From assembly GCA_965217865.1 (NCBI GenBank), contig CBDCJO010000002.1, positions 4,192,001 through 4,256,000 of the forward strand: a stretch of 64,000 nucleotides of DNA. The letters run 5' to 3'. Positions 31,236-43,576 of the stretch are shown here, piece after piece; position 1 is the first letter of the stretch, and every line of letters starts with the position of its first letter. The notes beneath the pieces are model-generated. The model worked only from the letters and a program-made list of their open reading frames with translations, had not been told where the DNA came from and searched no databases. Both the position numbers and the translations under genes were made by a program. This stretch comes from Candidatus Latescibacterota bacterium (lineage in GTDB: Bacteria > Latescibacterota > UBA2968 > SICM01).

Positions 31236-31519
31236 CTATATCCCCTCCTCATATGTCAGTTAACGTTTGGCACCCCCGAACCTGCAGCGGGCGCGGCACT
31301 TGCCCTTAAGGACTTTCACAAAAGCAGCAAGCGCCGTGTCCGCGATAGCAGGTTTGGTCGAGGGCCGTCAGGCCCGAGCTGGGGGTGCCTTGTTACACGA
31401 CGTGGTTGCTGTTAGATGTTTTGTTTCGTTGCGTCCAATCAGTTCGAAGAAGCCCATATACGACTCGATCCTTCCAAACCCCCTCATGAAGCGAATGCAT
31501 TCTTAGATCGCCTTCTTTA

Positions 31520-31763: not shown

Positions 31764-32192
31764 GGCTCTGATATTCCTGTTACGAGAACGACCGCTCTGC
31801 TCATGGTCGTTGGATGAGGAGATTGGCAGGAAGGCGACTATCTGACCGCCCAACCTGCACAAAGCGCTCTCGTCCTTGACCAACTCAGTGCCTCATCTGG
31901 CCACGTTCAATCCCACCATCTCTCCTCCCCACACTTTCTCGAACGGTAACTCGTTATTGAACTCAAGAATGCAGTATATCCTCTTCTATTCTGGAAATAT
32001 GCTGCAAGTGTGTTTGTCCCATCTCGTCCCATGTCATTTAACGTCTTCGCCACTTGCGAACCCGCCACCGGCGGGTTGCCGGAGGCCAAGGCGCGAATGC
32101 GCCGCAGCGCAAGTCGCGCTGTTAGAAGATGTGGTATACCCCCATCTATCCAAACTGTAAATCAAATGAAGACTTTACTACGGTTTATAAGC

Positions 32193-32672: not shown

Positions 32673-33017
32673 GGTTCATCTCCAATTTCGGACCTGCAAT
32701 TGAGCAGCGACAACGCAGTATATCCCGATCTATTCCGGAGCTATACTAAACAGGTCTCTATCCCTTCCATTTCTTCTAACGTCCGCGCACTTGCGAACTG
32801 CCGGCCTGTCCTCCGGAGCTGCGGCCTGTCCTTCCGAAGCTCCGAAGGAGCGAAGGAGGAAGGAGCGAAGGAGGGAGGAAAGTTGGGTCGAGGGCCGTCA
32901 GGCCTGAGCCGCAAGTGCAGTTGTTATGGGAAGTTCCAGCCGGCTTCTTGACTATCTTCCCAAAAAGCATCAACTTCAGAATCGGATATTGGGTCTTAAT
33001 TTCAGAAGAGCGATCCT

Positions 33018-33668
33018 ATGGAAGATCTACAATCACTCATTAGACAGACGCGAGAAGGCAATCTCCGCGCATTTGGCTATGTAGTCCGAAGATTTCACGA
33101 CATGGCGGTCGGATACGCCTTCTCCATCCTGAACGATTTTCATTTGGCGGAAGATGTCGCTCAAGAAGCCTTTGTGCAGGCTTTCTCCAGGCTCAGTCAG
33201 CTTACGGCCCGCAGGAAACTGAAGGACATCATCACCAGCAAATTCGATGAGTTGTTGCCAGAAACTTCGCCAACACACACCTATCAAGGAGCCCAGCATA
33301 TGTTCAAAACGATGTTTCCCGAGCTGCACGTATCCGACGTCGAAAAGGCGGCGACCTTTTTCTCAGAGGCGCTTGGTTTCAAAAGAGGATTTACATACGA
33401 GGAGGAGGGGAATCTGGACTTCGTTGTAATGTCCCACGGAGACAAGACCATATACCTCCACCACATGCTTCCTGATGTTGAGTCCGAGCAACCACGTCGG
33501 ATGAGACTCTACTTCCAGCCGTACGACATTGATCGCCTTCACACAGAGCTGAAGTCAAAGGGGTTCCAGGTTTCGCAGCTTGAAGATGAGAGCTACGGGG
33601 CAAGGACGTTCACTCTGAAAGGACCTGACCAGTACGAGATTTGGTTCCAGCAATGGACATCGAACTAG
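33018..33668 (+). CDS. Internally deleted ECF sigma factor fused to a VOC/glyoxalase domain (inverted within its cassette)
   Basis: VRRFHDMAVGYAFSILNDFHLAEDVAQEAF jumps to TARRKLK; then PELHVSDVEKAATFFSEALGF...YGARTFTLKGPD. Confidence 0.75.
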   Translation: MEDLQSLIRQTREGNLRAFGYVVRRFHDMAVGYAFSILNDFHLAEDVAQEAFVQAFSRLSQLTARRKLKDIITSKFDELLPETSPTHTYQGAQHMFKTMFPELHVSDVEKAATFFSEALGFKRGFTYEEEGNLDFVVMSHGDKTIYLHHMLPDVESEQPRRMRLYFQPYDIDRLHTELKSKGFQVSQLEDESYGARTFTLKGPDQYEIWFQQWTSN

Positions 33669-33792
33669 AGTTACCTTGGGCTGGAATTTCCCATAACGTC
33701 TCGCGCATGTCCGCAGCGAGGATTTGGGAGGAAGCCGGTGGTTTTCTCCGGCTGTAGCCGGACATGCGCTGTTATATGAAGTTCGACCCCAT

Positions 33793-36888: not shown

Positions 36889-37256
36889 ACTTTTGTTCCT
36901 ACGACTATAAAATGGTCTTATTCACTGTCGAACAGGCATATCTGAATATCAAGATCGAATTGTGGCAAACCGGGCAAGGATGATGGGAGAACTGATTTTG
37001 TCCCCCTTGTGTTTTTCAGATCGACCCCAAAACTGCCATTGCACATAACGTCTGAACACTCCCGAAGGGGCCGTGTATCGGAAAAGGAAGCAGTGTTTTT
37101 TGCCATCAGCCAATGAATCAGTCACGGCCCTTTTGACCGAGCGCAGCGAGTCGGGAGTGGGTTGTTAAATGCTGGTGGCGCGCCCCCTTCACGGCGAAGC
37201 CCTAAACGGGGCGGAAATACAGCGCACCCCTTCACCTTGTTTTCCCTACTTCGATC

Positions 37257-37853
37257 CTAATCCAACTTCTCCCTCGCAATCTCCACAATCCGGCCTCGCA
37301 CCACCTGTACGTCCTGTTCTCGAACTGTCCCCAGAGATCCTATCTCATCTCGAATCAGGCCTGCCACACGCTCCGTCACATTCTGGAAAATTCGATCCTG
37401 CACGGCCTGGCTAGCCCCATTCAGCGCAACTGCCAAATCTCTCGTATTCAGCTCACGTAGCATCCCTTGTATTTCCCGGTCGCTCAAATTTATAAGATCC
37501 TCAAACGTGTTCACCTCACGTATCCGTTCCGATAACCGACTTACCTGCTCCATCTCTTCGGCCGAAAGCGACCAGTCGAACACATCCATATTCTCTTTCA
37601 GATGCCCCTCTGAACTCGCCTTGGGAATCACCACCATCCCCTGCTGCACCAACCACCGCAGTCCCACCTGCCCGGGGGTCTTACTGTGGCACTGGCCAAT
37701 ATTGATCAGAGCAGGCTCTCCCAGAATGCGACCCCTTCCTAACGGCGTATGTGCTGTCACCACCACGTTGTGTTCTCGACACCATCGCAACACGTCCCGC
37801 TTCTCCTCCCCGGGATGGTACCTGATCTGGTTCACGCTAATGGGTACCTCGCT
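37257..37853 (-). pseudogene. 5'-truncated aldo/keto reductase fused to a FliG C-terminal domain
   Basis: NQIRYHP, AHTPLGRG, IPKASSEGHLKENMDVFDWSLS, then TFEDLINLSDREIQGMLRELNTRDLAVALNGAS...IFQNVTERVA. Confidence 0.82.
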
Positions 37854-38075
37854 AACGTCCGAAGCTGCGCTTTGCCCACCATAGCTTCCATGGCCACCGA
37901 AGCTTCCCTGGCCACCGAAGCGTCAGCGAAGGTGGCAGAGTAGGTGGGCAGCAGCGGAGGAGGAAGTGGGTTGGTGCGGAGCGTAGCGGAGCCGTGAGCC
38001 ACATGTTAAATGCAGTGCAGGTTTAGCATGCACATTACCTGACGGGGCAAATCTTTGACTCTGCGTTGAAGAAAA

Positions 38076-39401
38076 CTACCCTTCCTTCGGTTTCTTGAAC
38101 CACCACGTGGCTTCAAGGTGTTTTGGAGGAGGGGGGTGGGGCAGCGGGATCCAGGCCCCGACATCCACATCAGGACCCGTAGTCCCAGAGGGCCGGATAT
38201 CATCAGACGGACTCCCGTCTCCGGAATACTTGATATATAGCTTTAGAAATTTCGTCTTTTGTGTAACAACATCAGTTCCAAGGAAATTGCGGATCGGGAA
38301 GAAAAGCTTTACCCGTGCCTCACGTGGGGAATATGTATAAGCTCCTGTTGATTCCTCAAGGGAATCGGTACCGGGAGATAAGCGCCACCCTTTCCTCCAG
38401 ACGATCTCTCCTGTATGGCGGACCTGCATTGGTTCGTGAGGCCGAACGATACCCATCTCCTCTACTTCAATGGGCTCATAGGCAGTTCCCTCATTGTCCT
38501 CCAAATAAATGGTCCAGTTCTTCAACGAAAGAAAAGAGGGCGCGTAAGGTGTTCTCACCTTAAGGCGGATGAAAATGGCGTTCTCAATCCGGTTTTTCGA
38601 CCAGTAAGCCTCACGGATCGTAGATAAGTTCCGACCCTTTGGATTGTAGTATTTGCAGATATGGTGGACTTCTGCCTCGACCAGGTCGGGCGACATCAGG
38701 GTGGCGGCCACGGTGAGGGGTGAACGAACAAGACGATTCTCCAGCCCTGGCCCATGCTTTCCACGGGTCGGCTGCCATAAATCGTCTGTAATGTGCGACT
38801 CACCTCGCAGGGGATCGTTTAAGGGCGCGTACGTTCTAACTATCCAAGTCTTCAGGAGGTCGGAGTAGGACTTCGACTGATCCTGCTTCTGGGGCTTGGT
38901 AAAACTGACATAGTAAACATCCGTTTGATTTGGTTCGTGCAGCCCAGCCCAGGTGTCAATGTAACAGAAAGGCATCTTTTGGTTAAACCGAAGGTCCAAC
39001 AGGCGATCCTTGCGTTTCGTCATATCATCCAGACGGTCCTGCTGCCGGCTGTCGAGACTTCCTCTGAAGTTGTTCAAGACTCTGTCGACTTCTGCGATTG
39101 CTTTCTTCTTTCTATCCCTTACCTCGTTGAGGTCTCCACTCATCCCTTTCCAGATAGCTGCTTCAGATGTCATCCTCGCATAGTCCCACTCGAAGGCCTT
39201 CAAAGTATTTCGGATCTGGGAAATCTTCCACCTTGCTGAATCCTGTTGCGCTGGGGATAGCTTTAGTTTCTTTGTGAGCTTTCGAAGGTCCAACAGATCT
39301 TCCGGTCCTCGACCATGACCATAGGCAACCAAAGCCGGAAAAATGATACAGAGCGCCACAAAGAACCGAGGCCAATGTGTGGTAGTACTTTTTCTCACCA
39401 T
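38076..39401 (-). CDS. Secreted hypothetical protein, 441 aa (cassette gene)
   Basis: Signal peptide; helical N-region (LKLSPAQQ...LDSRQQ); no recognised family. Confidence 0.75.
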   Translation of the reverse strand: MVRKSTTTHWPRFFVALCIIFPALVAYGHGRGPEDLLDLRKLTKKLKLSPAQQDSARWKISQIRNTLKAFEWDYARMTSEAAIWKGMSGDLNEVRDRKKKAIAEVDRVLNNFRGSLDSRQQDRLDDMTKRKDRLLDLRFNQKMPFCYIDTWAGLHEPNQTDVYYVSFTKPQKQDQSKSYSDLLKTWIVRTYAPLNDPLRGESHITDDLWQPTRGKHGPGLENRLVRSPLTVAATLMSPDLVEAEVHHICKYYNPKGRNLSTIREAYWSKNRIENAIFIRLKVRTPYAPSFLSLKNWTIYLEDNEGTAYEPIEVEEMGIVRPHEPMQVRHTGEIVWRKGWRLSPGTDSLEESTGAYTYSPREARVKLFFPIRNFLGTDVVTQKTKFLKLYIKYSGDGSPSDDIRPSGTTGPDVDVGAWIPLPHPPPPKHLEATWWFKKPKEG

Positions 39402-39858
39402 TCCCCCCTACCCTTGCTGTAGGTTGAATACCTGCATTGCATTTAATGTTCAGGGTTGCAGAAGTGGCCGTGCATTGGTAAAGATAAAAAAGTTTTACAG
39501 GAAAGTATAAAAGAAAAACCTACGGCCATTTTTGGGGTGGGTGGAAGGTGAGGTGGGGAACTGCAACCCGGTGTTAGACGCCGCGGGCTCCGCTTTTCAC
39601 ATCCTCATGATTTATTTAAGAGAGGCCTCAGTTCCCTTCGCGTTTCCACGGCAGTGCGCTTTGCTCAACGGCTTTTCGGACATTACCGAGCCAAATTGGC
39701 CATAACCAATCCGTCTCGCACCCGAGGGGCAGATACTTCTTGTCAATAATGTGCTTCTGCTCGCGGTCAACTTTGGCTTGGACATAGCGTTCAACCTGAG
39801 AGAAGGGAATCCACGCATAGGGTCCACTCTCAAAGTAGGATCTGTCATTTTTAGGTGT

Positions 39859-40059
39859 TCAAAGGCGACGGTGAGGAGCGCAGAACAGCATTTCGACACC
39901 ATTCCACATCCTCTCGCGGTCGGAGGTCAATCGGACATCAAGCTCGACGGCATCCACGCCAAGGTCAATTGCACGCTGAAAAGCTTGAATAGTATTCTCA
40001 GGTGCTTCACCAGGAGCACCTCTATGAGCTACGATCTCGAATTGATCCACTTTCTCCAA
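39859..40059 (-). pseudogene. Glycerophosphodiester phosphodiesterase N-terminal fragment
   Basis: IVAHRGA...PENTIQAF...[10 protein letters not shown], then similarity is lost. Confidence 0.75.
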
Positions 40060-40335
40060 GGCCGCTGTTTAATAACCGTTTATGAATTGCTCCCCCCCTT
40101 GCCCACTCTCGAATTACCACAAACCCTCATTTCGCCTAACGATTTCGCCGTGCCCGAACCGGCGGCTTGTCCACCGAAGCGGCGTCTTACCCACCGTAGC
40201 TTCCCTGGCCACCGAAGCGTCAGCGAAGGTGGGCAGCCGCGAAGGTGGAAGCCGGTTGGGCGAAGGGCGTAAGCCCGTAGCCGGGCACGGACGTGTTATG
40301 CGGCGTTAGCTTCCTCTCGTTCATCACAAGGGAAA

Positions 40336-40917: not shown

Positions 40918-41219
40918 CTAAGTCTCTAACTAATGCCGCATAACGTTCGTGGATCTCTAAACCCGCCCGTGTTTTTTTGGCGGGTTGCCGAAGGCCGAAC
41001 GACCGAAGGGAGTGAGCAGAGATCCATTGTTATAGGATGTGCCAGCCCGGGGTGGGGTAGGGGCTTGCCAAGAACGGAAAGCTTCGGAGAATCTTCAAGA
41101 CGCAGATAGCATATCTCCTGGAGCATATGTCTCCACAGGGCCTCCTTCGCTACATCCAGCCCCCCTCATGTCCTGGTTAAACAGCGATCTCAGCCTGGGC
41201 TCTCCGAGGTTGCCTACAG

Positions 41220-41870
41220 TCAATATAGGACATTGAGCTTCTGCTCAACAATATGGGGGTTGTCACCGCTTTGAATCGACTTGATGCCCTCAAGGACTTT
41301 CCGATATTTCACCTTCTGTTCATGTAGCAAAGACTCCATCCAGGTGCTAAGAATTGCCTGAACCAGTTCTGGTTCCGTTCCATCCACGGCTAGCCGAACA
41401 GCCGTAGTCAAAAACTTATCGCCCGGGCTTTGCACCATATTTTCCAACGTCATGATGCCTTCTCTCCGAGCTATCTCGGCAAACCCGACAAACAGCCTGT
41501 TAATCTCATCGGAACCGAGCTCAGAGAGCGGACGCTTGATGGTGGTTCTTATCGCCCGTTTCGTAGCGAGGTATTTCTTCCCAAGCTTGGGCTTTTTAAG
41601 TTGCCTTACAGTTTTCACGATGGACAACTGCACATCCTCCACATCGCGCATTGGAATCGGATCGGAAATTTCCATTTCCTCTCTGACCATCGTCCGCACA
41701 CGCTTCGACATATTGCCAAATATTCGACCTTTCAGCTCCTTTGTCGCACCTTTCAGTGCAACAGCCAGGTCTTTCGTGTCCACCTCCCGTAGCATCAGCT
41801 GGATCTCCCGATCCGTTAGTTTCGAGAGATCGTCAAAGGTGATTTCATGGGTTGCTTGCGTCGCTGACAT
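41220..41870 (-). CDS. FliG C-terminal domain fused to the cytoplasmic part of MotA, no TM helices (cassette gene)
   Basis: AAGGAGG RBS; TFDDLSKLTDREIQLMLREVDTKDLAVALKGA...NMSKRVRTMVREEM (FliG_C); AEIARREGIMTLE...FLTTAVRLAVDGTEPE and LEGIKSIQSGDNPHIVEQKL (MotA). Confidence 0.85.
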   Translation of the reverse strand: MSATQATHEITFDDLSKLTDREIQLMLREVDTKDLAVALKGATKELKGRIFGNMSKRVRTMVREEMEISDPIPMRDVEDVQLSIVKTVRQLKKPKLGKKYLATKRAIRTTIKRPLSELGSDEINRLFVGFAEIARREGIMTLENMVQSPGDKFLTTAVRLAVDGTEPELVQAILSTWMESLLHEQKVKYRKVLEGIKSIQSGDNPHIVEQKLNVLY

Positions 41871-42054
41871 GATTATGTCCTCCTTATGAGTCGTTAAGGG
41901 TGGTCTGGGATGGCCGCCTCTTGTTTTTGGGCTGGCATTTCCTATAACGTTCAGTGGCTCACGAACCCGCGCCAGCGGGTTGGTGCGGAGCGCAGCGGAG
42001 CCGTGAGCCACATGTTATGAGAAGTGCTGCCCGAAGATACTTCCACAGCATCGC

Positions 42055-43048: not shown

Positions 43049-43130
43049 TCATAACTTACGGTATTCCTGAACTCCTACGCAGATTCCATCATTTCGGCAC
43101 ATCTCCCGCCCTTCGCAGATACCTCCCCAC
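43049..43130 (-). other. Probable attI site
   Basis: GTTATGA core (43055-43049, minus) complementary to the end of cassette 1; no attC hairpin upstream; next to the integrase remnant; upstream boundary uncertain. Confidence 0.55.
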
Positions 43131-43207
43131 GAAGAACCAACCCGTATATGTTCGTAGATCCCTTGTTATTAGGAGAAATCGTTTTAGGACGAACCCACCT
43201 TTGACAA

Positions 43208-43343
43208 TTACATTATACTATCCAGAGCACTCTGAATCTTTCCGATATTTCGGGTTGTGACCCTGGGATAGATTTCGGTGGTCTTAGAACTCTTATCCTA
43301 ACAATTCTTGAATATAACGCAAATCCGTTCCACGTTCAAGCAA
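43208..43343 (-). pseudogene. C-terminal remnant of a tyrosine recombinase/integron-type integrase
   Basis: LLERGTDLRYIQELLG / frameshift / KSSKTTEIYPRVTTRNIGKIQSALD*; box II with the catalytic Tyr. Confidence 0.78.
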
Positions 43344-43576
43344 AGGCGCCTTCGAAACCCTGGCCTTTGGACGCTCCACACAGAATTTGGACACTCAGAA
43401 GCATTCAGGTCTTTATCGCATAAAAATAAACACACTTGCACGAACCCGGTCCATTTCCGTTGCAATTTAAGAGGGGTTTTCGCCAATCTCAATACGGACG
43501 CGAGTTTTGGTGGTAACCCCTCGTTTGTCATTGCTATGGATCGACTTTTGAGTTAGTATCCCTTTGTATAATTTTA

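Follow-up and report, generated by a model that had tools for sequence, protein, structure and literature searches.

Two halves of an aldo/keto reductase–FliG_C cassette gene and of an attC site at two distant junctions of a Candidatus Latescibacterota genome

How does a cassette gene come to begin in the middle of an enzyme domain, and what became of its first half? The question is raised by a window, the whole stretch of 64,000 nucleotides analysed here, on contig C2 of a Candidatus Latescibacterota genome (G000). It contains a cassette array on the minus strand, whose attC-like sites were found, among many weaker candidates, by a scan for paired L boxes. The features discussed are collected in Table 1.

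The minus-strand frame at 37257-37922 is open over 221 codons. According to Pfam, its residues 23-130 are the C-terminal half of an Aldo_ket_red domain (profile positions 152-289 of 291; E = 2.7e-16, 60 bits against a cut-off of 24), directly followed by FliG_C at residues 128-218 (E = 7.3e-23, over cut-off). An earlier note on this DNA had described this in-frame fusion of an aldo/keto reductase (AKR) to FliG_C, and had called its tail homologous to the domain at 41220-41870; both statements hold, the two cassette FliG_C parts being 46% identical over 80 aa. Of the domains of the flagellar rotor protein FliG, Pfam finds FliG_C only in the product, without the N or middle domain. Reductase homology begins, as had been noted, at GTTAGCG (37850-37856): its first codon, GTT at 37856, encodes a Val and corresponds to residue 149 of full-length homologues. 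A frame-shifted reductase homology upstream of this GTT was rejected, the stretch there being an attC repeat. GTTAGCG resembles an R' core, but is coding sequence exposed at a junction. No ATG stands at the beginning of the window half; a product of 192 aa could be made from a GTG at 37835. No RNA run is found among the public runs listed for 36900-38600.

A search for full-length homologues, which the earlier note had suggested, retrieved an intact one, P0004: it is 347 aa long, carries both domains with the same linker, shows 56% identity across the whole query, and has the GTT position internal, at residue 149. The closest relative of the enzyme part, P0138, is unbroken across the junction and ends early, at residue 206. 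Residues D43, Y48, K73 and H106 (P0138 numbering), which we take to be the catalytic residues of the reductase, are all missing from the window half (0 of 4), and the tetrad is found in a distant 5' half, described below. A complete barrel, with the tetrad on one chain, is present in P0004 and lacking in the window product. The 3' end of the cassette is in order, the ORF being followed by a foldable attC with R'', L'', L' and R' (37043-37170). Between its end core (37164-37170) and the present start, GTTAGCG, there are three mismatches, as against 0-1 in seven of the eight other pairs compared in the array and 2 in the remaining one; the exceptional lack of complementarity, pointed out in the earlier note, is confirmed.

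The bases that precede the GTT belong to an incomplete attC. The arms of 37850-38011 had been reported as unpaired, and the folding check, run on 37848-38014, agrees: the predicted fold is no better than those of shuffled sequences (z = -0.95, with 37 of 200 shuffles as good), whereas an intact control site at 40133-40292 gives z = -2.15, with 6 of 200 shuffles as good. The L'' box (37993-38002) has no partner and stays unpaired, and intact copies of the same family fold fully; the pairing of L'' with L' and of R'' with R', proper to the folded bottom strand of a functional attC, is lacking in 37858-38011. The site had been thought to be chimeric. It is not made of two attCs, and is the left part of a single one, of the family of 41942-42020 and C2:3245211-3245325, cut in its terminal stem. 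According to the fold of an intact copy, the cut lies about 31 nt before the R' box, in the right arm of the terminal stem and beside an internal loop. In comparison with the family copy C2:3245211-3245325, 11 nt of the family end at the junction, named J1. A chimeric site was rejected, as a genome search with the distal end of the site gave no intact attC ending in that way, and as the family copies continue with 10 nt that are absent at J1. The site has lost these 10 nt; its right arm, including L' and R', is now found at a second junction (from C2:5005672), and a 258-aa gene is located at C2:5005703. J1 itself reads AC and then GTTA, the A coming from the attC and the C from a Ser codon, with a homology of 0-2 nt only.

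Table 1. Positions of the features discussed in the text; positions without prefix are those of the window.
Feature	Position	Strand	Evidence or remark
attC-like sites	41942-42020, 40938-41035, 40134-40301, 39441-39579, 37043-37170, 33691-33777, 32774-32929, 32036-32127, 31258-31398	-	paired-L-box scan
3' half of split AKR–FliG_C gene	37257..37857	-	codons 149-347 + one base
Aldo/keto reductase barrel, C-terminal part	37533..37856	-	PF00248 profile positions 152-289 (Pfam)
FliG_C domain	37269..37541	-	PF01706, positions 8-99 of 108; Pfam and alignment with FliG
GTTAGCG, Val-Ser codons of the reductase	37850..37856	-	R' core look-alike
Intact attC closing the AKR–FliG_C cassette	37043..37170	-	paired L boxes
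Hairpin element of about 65 nt	37171..37235	-	between stop codon and R''
Junction J1	37857..37858		attC left part / reductase 3' half
Left part of cut attC	37858..38011	-	R'' 38005-38011, L'' 37993-38002, long inner palindromic repeat
Upstream cassette owning the cut attC	38012..39446	-	441-aa ORF 38076-39401, no Pfam match
Intact short attC of the cut site's family	41942..42020	-	displays the right arm absent from the cut site
5' half of AKR–FliG_C gene	G000:C2:5005230-5005671	+	genome search with N-terminal halves
Second FliG_C-carrying cassette gene	41220..41870	-	FliG_C at 41223-41870, E 8.2e-29 (Pfam)
intI 3' remnant and downstream region	43050..43344	-	head of the array part now preceding J1
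Partial intI 3'-end copies	43050-43344; C2:4999306, 2034926, 1990301, 1789624, 3803509, 1982584, 3496223, 4801708		
FliG_C-like modules on non-FliG ORFs	41220-41870; C2:2803570, 2600666-2601583, 4746786, 3668706, 4972018		
Decayed FliG_C remnants	L029:4328-4600; L045:3341-3595		behind a reductase now stopping at 256-260 aa

The missing half is located on the opposite strand of the same contig, 776 kb from the window locus (C2:4229856, minus strand). It is 94% identical to residues 1-146 of P0138, and the window half is 90% identical to residues 146-194 of the same protein. The cassette that carries it starts at C2:5005142, and this start is complementary to the end of the window cassette (37164-37172) at 9 of 9 positions, and at 14 of 18 over the first 18, restoring the core complementarity that the present start lacks. 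The half consists of 442 bases, directly followed by the attC right arm (second junction, C2:5005671/2), where the attC family resumes 10 nt later and continues to the G of R', as aligned to C2:3245211-3245325. Altogether, 443 of the 444 bases needed before Val149 are present; the gene is 1 nt short, possibly through a consensus error, as single frameshifts occur elsewhere in the assembly. A CG dinucleotide at the second joint can be assigned to either parent, giving an overlap of 2 nt. The polarity of the cassettes is maintained at both joints, the second of which is known from the assembly alone. The 5' half was not deleted, because it is present here, joined to the missing attC arm: the earlier proposal that a rearrangement broke the fusion gene stands, and the part of it that had recombination remove the 5' half does not. 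Very probably, the gene and the attC were each cut once and the pieces were joined crosswise, so that two arrays exchanged their parts reciprocally and with inverted polarity.

In order to verify J1, public sequencing runs were inspected. Twenty-two runs are listed for 36900-38600, six of which hold at least half of the words, and four (X2, X6, X7 and X8) were examined. J1 is bridged with no differences by contigs of two of the four, X2 (study P2, depth 20) and X6 (study P1), one or other of which studies may include the source sample. J1 is not an assembly error, because these contigs cross 37857/8 without difference. A contig of 1,110 nt from X7 (study P3) matches 37858-37930 and then reads, on the cassette strand, the 10 lost bases, GGATAAGACG, followed by the right arm of the family; it is an uncut attC allele in another population. 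Another contig of the same run lies over the 441-aa cassette; in X7 the gene half is not covered, and the loose ends listed include no uncut allele of the gene. X8 gave pieces only, with none across the joint among those listed. An uncut allele of the gene of the source strain was not recovered from these runs.

The two gene halves lie on opposite strands of one contig, and the exchange would therefore have been an inversion when it occurred. The present geometry is less simple. GC skew over the interval is +0.040, like that of the surroundings. Third-position skew, calculated on long ORFs, is reversed in the first two of 19 full 40-kb bins to the right of J1 (-0.075 +/- 0.026 and -0.080 +/- 0.023), and positive in the other 17. 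A single recent 776-kb inversion within one replichore is contradicted by this base skew. The simplest reading would be an inversion at both joints, followed by further rearrangement or by mis-ordering at repeats: a later IS-mediated rearrangement, or the ordering of contigs at IS copies, probably set the present 776-kb spacing. The genome contains 90 near-full copies of one IS, which we take, from Pfam domains, to be IS1182-like, and 35 of another, likewise taken to be IS3-like. No inverted IS pair with swapped flanks, which would prove a second event, was found. IS1595 and IS3 copies near the second joint were rejected as such a pair, as their flanks match; a pair of IS1182-like copies, at 4.313 and 4.976 Mb, is inverted, but with target sites too similar for swapped flanks to be recognised. 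An IS-mediated inversion at the joints themselves finds no support, as no repeat of at least 300 nt at 95% identity or more covers either of them.

As to the joining, we give an even chance to cross-joining of two double-strand breaks by Ku/LigD, which would have swapped the heads of two oppositely oriented cassette arrays; end-joining as the joining chemistry is held with about the same, balanced confidence. In the proposed sequence of events, the attC would have been cut inside its terminal stem, at a break arising at the extruded hairpin; the reductase–FliG_C gene would have been broken at codon 148/149; and Ku/LigD would have joined the two breaks crosswise, giving two reciprocal junctions. 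Ku (PF02735) is encoded in the host genome (E = 1.5e-45, over cut-off), and adjoining it is a LigD-like frame of 777 aa, matched in two pieces, each below the family cut-off. Both joints have the features of end-joining scars, i.e. small losses and microhomology of 0-6 nt or fill-in. Scars of non-homologous end-joining (NHEJ) described in Streptomyces show microhomologies of 1-6 nt, fill-ins and deletions, and large rearrangements are possible there (PMC5869714); PMC10127599 describes a junction that formed within the terminal structure of an attC independently of integrase. Routes other than Ku/LigD can also leave small losses and short microhomology, and the joints do not pin the acting enzyme. 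Moreover, the gene-side break lies within 2 nt of a G/TT. GTT occurs 18 times in the 1,045 nt of the gene, and the chance of a random break falling so near is 0.05 for GTT, 0.026 for GTTR and 0.009 for GTTA. A role of the GTT is possible; its position favours a cut by the integrase or by an IS110 element on the gene side, and counts against pure end-joining. The routes are not exclusive, as an integrase or a transposase could have made the break that Ku/LigD healed.

The main rival to Ku/LigD end-joining is an inversion initiated by the integrase, which we consider clearly less probable, yet still a serious possibility. Here IntI would have cut the GTT of the reductase gene as an attG-like secondary site, and the failed reaction with an inverted partner would have been rescued by an illegitimate break in the attC stem, with loss of bases. 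In the published reactions, IntI cleaves the folded attC at the G/TT of R' with conservation of bases, and its inversions proceed by second-strand exchange between double-stranded sites (PMC4792948, PMC10127599). The joints are not a clean integrase product, because the attC is cut about 31 nt upstream of the G/TT of R' and the joints are 10 nt out of register, with a loss of 10 nt from the attC and of 1 nt from the gene in what should be a conservative exchange; recombination at a secondary GTT site, as first proposed in the earlier note, fails on the same counts. On the gene side, the GTT within 2 nt of the break does agree with the GNT/GWT of secondary sites and with the GWT consensus given for attG (10.1101/2022.09.11.507474). 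The maintained polarity at both joints and the presence of intI in the genome also speak for the integrase, as do the inversions reported between inverted secondary sites, in one case with the motif at one end only (PMC10127599), and the rare inversions between inverted attC sites, which required an unexplained second cleavage (PMC4792948). The crossover in the latter inversions, as published, was held at the canonical AAC. The only near-complete intI (C2:1657178-1657988; loci L001 and L002), moreover, is below the family cut-off and split into two frames in the assembly, by a frameshift that is either real or a consensus error. A deletion of the 5' half by IntI recombination of the upstream attC with a secondary GTT, along the lines of the earlier note, would explain the GTT at the start of the remnant and the core mismatch with the cassette end; it can hardly be right, given that the genome does contain the 5' half and the cassette start at another place, attached to the missing attC arm, and that, if these belonged to a second broken copy, two breaks would have to coincide within 1 nt of a 1,045-nt gene and share one attC.

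Cuts by a transposase, either off-target by an attC-targeting IS110-family element or by an HUH Y1 single-strand transposase acting on the attC hairpin, are improbable. Eight near-full copies of an IS110-family element (including G000:C2:3238635-3240551) are inserted exactly at the R' crossover of attCs, with AC at the end of 10 of 10 left flanks and GTTA after 9 of 10 complete right ends; J1 has the same AC/GTTA, and one copy (C2:5003210-5005141) stands directly before the reductase 5'-half cassette. The AC at J1 may match by chance, its A deriving from the attC and its C from the Ser codon; no IS sequence is found at either joint, and the parental sites are both unlike the ends of the element. 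IS110 recombinases are able to invert DNA, and genomic inversions by them have been observed, though rarely (PMC11208160); bridge recombination is conservative, whereas bases were lost here. As regards Y1 transposases, 19 matches over cut-off are present in the genome, but single-strand transfer alone would not yield both joints. Still less probable is template switching during replication at a stalled attC hairpin, which would have made both joints via the CG microhomology, with no dedicated ligase: the long inner palindrome of the attC and the 2-nt CG overlap at the second joint agree with it, but homology at J1 is 0-2 nt, and template switches seldom yield two balanced joints with so little loss. 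It is very unlikely that the second junction, or the apparent inversion, is an artefact of this long-contig MAG (9.3% contamination). The second junction does rest on the assembly, the skew does not favour an inversion for most of the interval, and 90 near-full copies of one IS could mislead the ordering of contigs. Mis-ordering, on the other hand, could alter the distance and not the joints, no repeat spans either of them, J1 is confirmed in two studies, and an assembler is not expected to generate pieces of an attC and of a gene that complement each other exactly.

A more speculative reading, which we regard as improbable when taken as a whole, would combine integron and end-joining in a hand-off. 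IntI would cut a GTT inside a cassette gene, with a second break in an extruded attC hairpin; Ku/LigD would cross-join the ends, inverting the chromosome and swapping two array heads; and the lineage would have escaped the cost, in the way of inverted Vibrio integrons under laboratory conditions, through an intI frameshift and IS-mediated re-inversion. The same reading would have the cargo come from an undescribed protein set, in which the FliG C-terminal module is a portable tag, borne by a reductase, a MotA-like segment and a sigma-factor-like protein, and docking enzymes at the flagellar switch.

Parallels with known systems are partial. Inversions and translocations are named by Cury et al. 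(PMC4889954) as a cause of integrase-less attC clusters (CALIN). As in the CALIN described there, the clusters found here lack an adjoining full integrase, are rich in ISs, and have intI elsewhere in the genome; unlike in those cases, both breakpoints are resolved at the base, one in an attC stem and one in a cassette gene, without IS. The off-target IntI1 inversions on plasmid R388 reported by Souque et al. (PMC10127599) likewise disrupt genes, with GTT at one end, but in the clear cases among them GTT is in register on both sides, whereas here the attC is cut away from GTT and bases are lost. The attC x attC inversions of Escudero et al. (PMC4792948) share inverted sites and an inversion as the viable product, and differ by a canonical AAC crossover. 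Streptomyces NHEJ, as described in PMC5869714, is similar in its short microhomology, small losses, possible fill-in and large rearrangement, and Ku/LigD genes are present here too; there, breaks were induced and genes knocked out, while here the enzyme is inferred. Inverted Vibrio cholerae integron arrays, in the account of Richard et al. (PMC11023631), were rescued by intI frameshift or IS3-mediated re-inversion. The present case resembles them in the inverted array, the frameshifted intI, and a skew suggesting that most of the interval was turned back; that system was engineered and followed in real time, whereas here the re-inversion is not located and the frameshift is maybe a consensus error.

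Both products of the exchange would be dead ends. The cut attC can presumably no longer fold, L'' and L' being apart, and the 441-aa cassette, because of this, would be left without a recombination site and would not be excisable as a unit. The (beta/alpha)8 enzyme would be divided between a catalytic half, of 150 aa, and a half that lacks a start and bears FliG_C. That arrays are split by inversion is already known (PMC4889954), and an earlier example of a junction in the terminal structure of an attC exists (PMC10127599). What is new is a natural, base-resolved pair of reciprocal junctions with an uncut allele, together with the reductase–FliG_C architecture; no description of such a junction pair was found in the main texts of open-access papers. 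It is uncommon for a case to offer both breakpoints, an uncut allele from another population and a loss of bases that can be counted. The present one indicates that chromosome-scale exchanges can have their break points in attC terminal stems, the joints being free of IS, and warns annotators that a 'truncated cassette starting at GTT' can be one half of an inversion, the other half being far off. It is one scar of one lineage, and carries moderate general weight.

The AKR–FliG_C fusion is real, and appears to be old, rare (one intact full-length sequence was found) and repeatedly lost. Both domains occur in three of the 288 proteins gathered by the searches, namely P0004, P0005, which is a 192-aa C-terminal piece of P0004, and the window's own product. 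A search for longer forms gave two matches among 4,123 candidates of 350-2000 aa, both with FliG_C only, which is weak evidence; a search of representatives found both domains in none of the best 150 of 14,395 matches; and no intact fusion was seen among the matches listed for 40 genomes of relatives. The ESM Atlas, among the clusters shown, has none with both domains, and, as it covers clusters of at least 50 only, says nothing on novelty. No description of the fusion was found in the main texts of open-access papers. At the DNA level, one of 167 other genomes of the phylum (G079, 71%) matches across both domains, and the nearest named homologues belong to genomes labelled Ca. Latescibacterota and Gemmatimonadota. 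In two of 114 loci examined, L029 and L045, 99.9% identical to each other, the reductase ends at a stop and a decayed FliG_C comes after it. Their DNA shares 71% identity with the window along 604 nt, which include the stop codon and bases beyond it, and their reductase belongs to a cluster of 22 members. These two are not established as cassettes, because the six window attCs, used as queries for attC-like arms near the reductase, matched none of the 114 loci.

The best solved relatives of P0004 are 2,5-diketo-D-gluconate reductase B and YvgN (PDB 3up8, 3f7j), over residues 5-270 (E from 1e-58 to 1e-56); the stretch shared with them ends by residue 270, and the FliG_C tail is extra. From the intact gene one would expect a reductase of the 2,5-diketo-D-gluconate reductase type, dependent on NADPH and extended by a tail derived from FliG. 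The window tail is 49-52% identical to the host's own FliG and, in the alignment with it, retains the Arg and Asp/Glu of the charged ridge, residues presumably involved in motor torque. Unlike FliG (PF01706), it is cassette-borne, fused to an enzyme, and free of the FliG N and middle domains. Our best guess is that the tail would most likely dock the reductase on FliG-type partners at the flagellar switch. In the host genome FliG_C is found on seven non-FliG ORFs; besides FliG genes, three of them full or near-full, and a frameshifted paralogue, the FliG_C queries match six further ORFs that are not FliG. The modules are found ahead of a MotA-like segment (twice), behind a sigma-factor-like region, and alone (twice), and one lies inside a 499-aa protein with a C-terminal hydrophobic stretch; the labels other than FliG_C are our reading of the sequences. 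A weak similarity (41% over 51 aa) links the C-terminal part of the 41220-41870 gene to an ORF here taken to be MotA-like.

Both array heads carry a 3' remnant of intI (43050-43344 in the window, and C2:4999306-4999635), and nine partial copies of the intI 3' end and downstream region, 80-99% identical and including these two, are scattered in the genome; the cassettes lie downstream of intI, in the same orientation. The hairpin of about 65 nt, placed before the R'' of the window cassette, is found at four other places of the genome (C2:247375, 1656241, 5726107 and 5726701), in unrelated cassettes, and also in cassettes of other genera (L133, L134), at 75-89% identity; it may be a vestige of cassette formation. 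A palindromic repeat, nested in the terminal structure, is shared by attCs of different families (37858-37950 and 40160-40250 in the window; C2:5725074-5725186). The R' core at 39441-39447, before the 441-aa cassette, has an A in place of the initial G, and the two ends of this cassette are complementary over 19 nt with three differences. Within the same array, a glycerophosphodiester phosphodiesterase (GDPD) cassette gene at 39612-40059 (minus strand) is broken into two short frames, and a reverse-oriented cassette gene at 33018-33668 (plus strand) has sigma-70 region 2 fused to a glyoxalase domain. A HisA/His6-like gene of low GC content (PF00977; 33793-34539, minus strand) lies inside the array, adjoining an IS110-family transposase gene.
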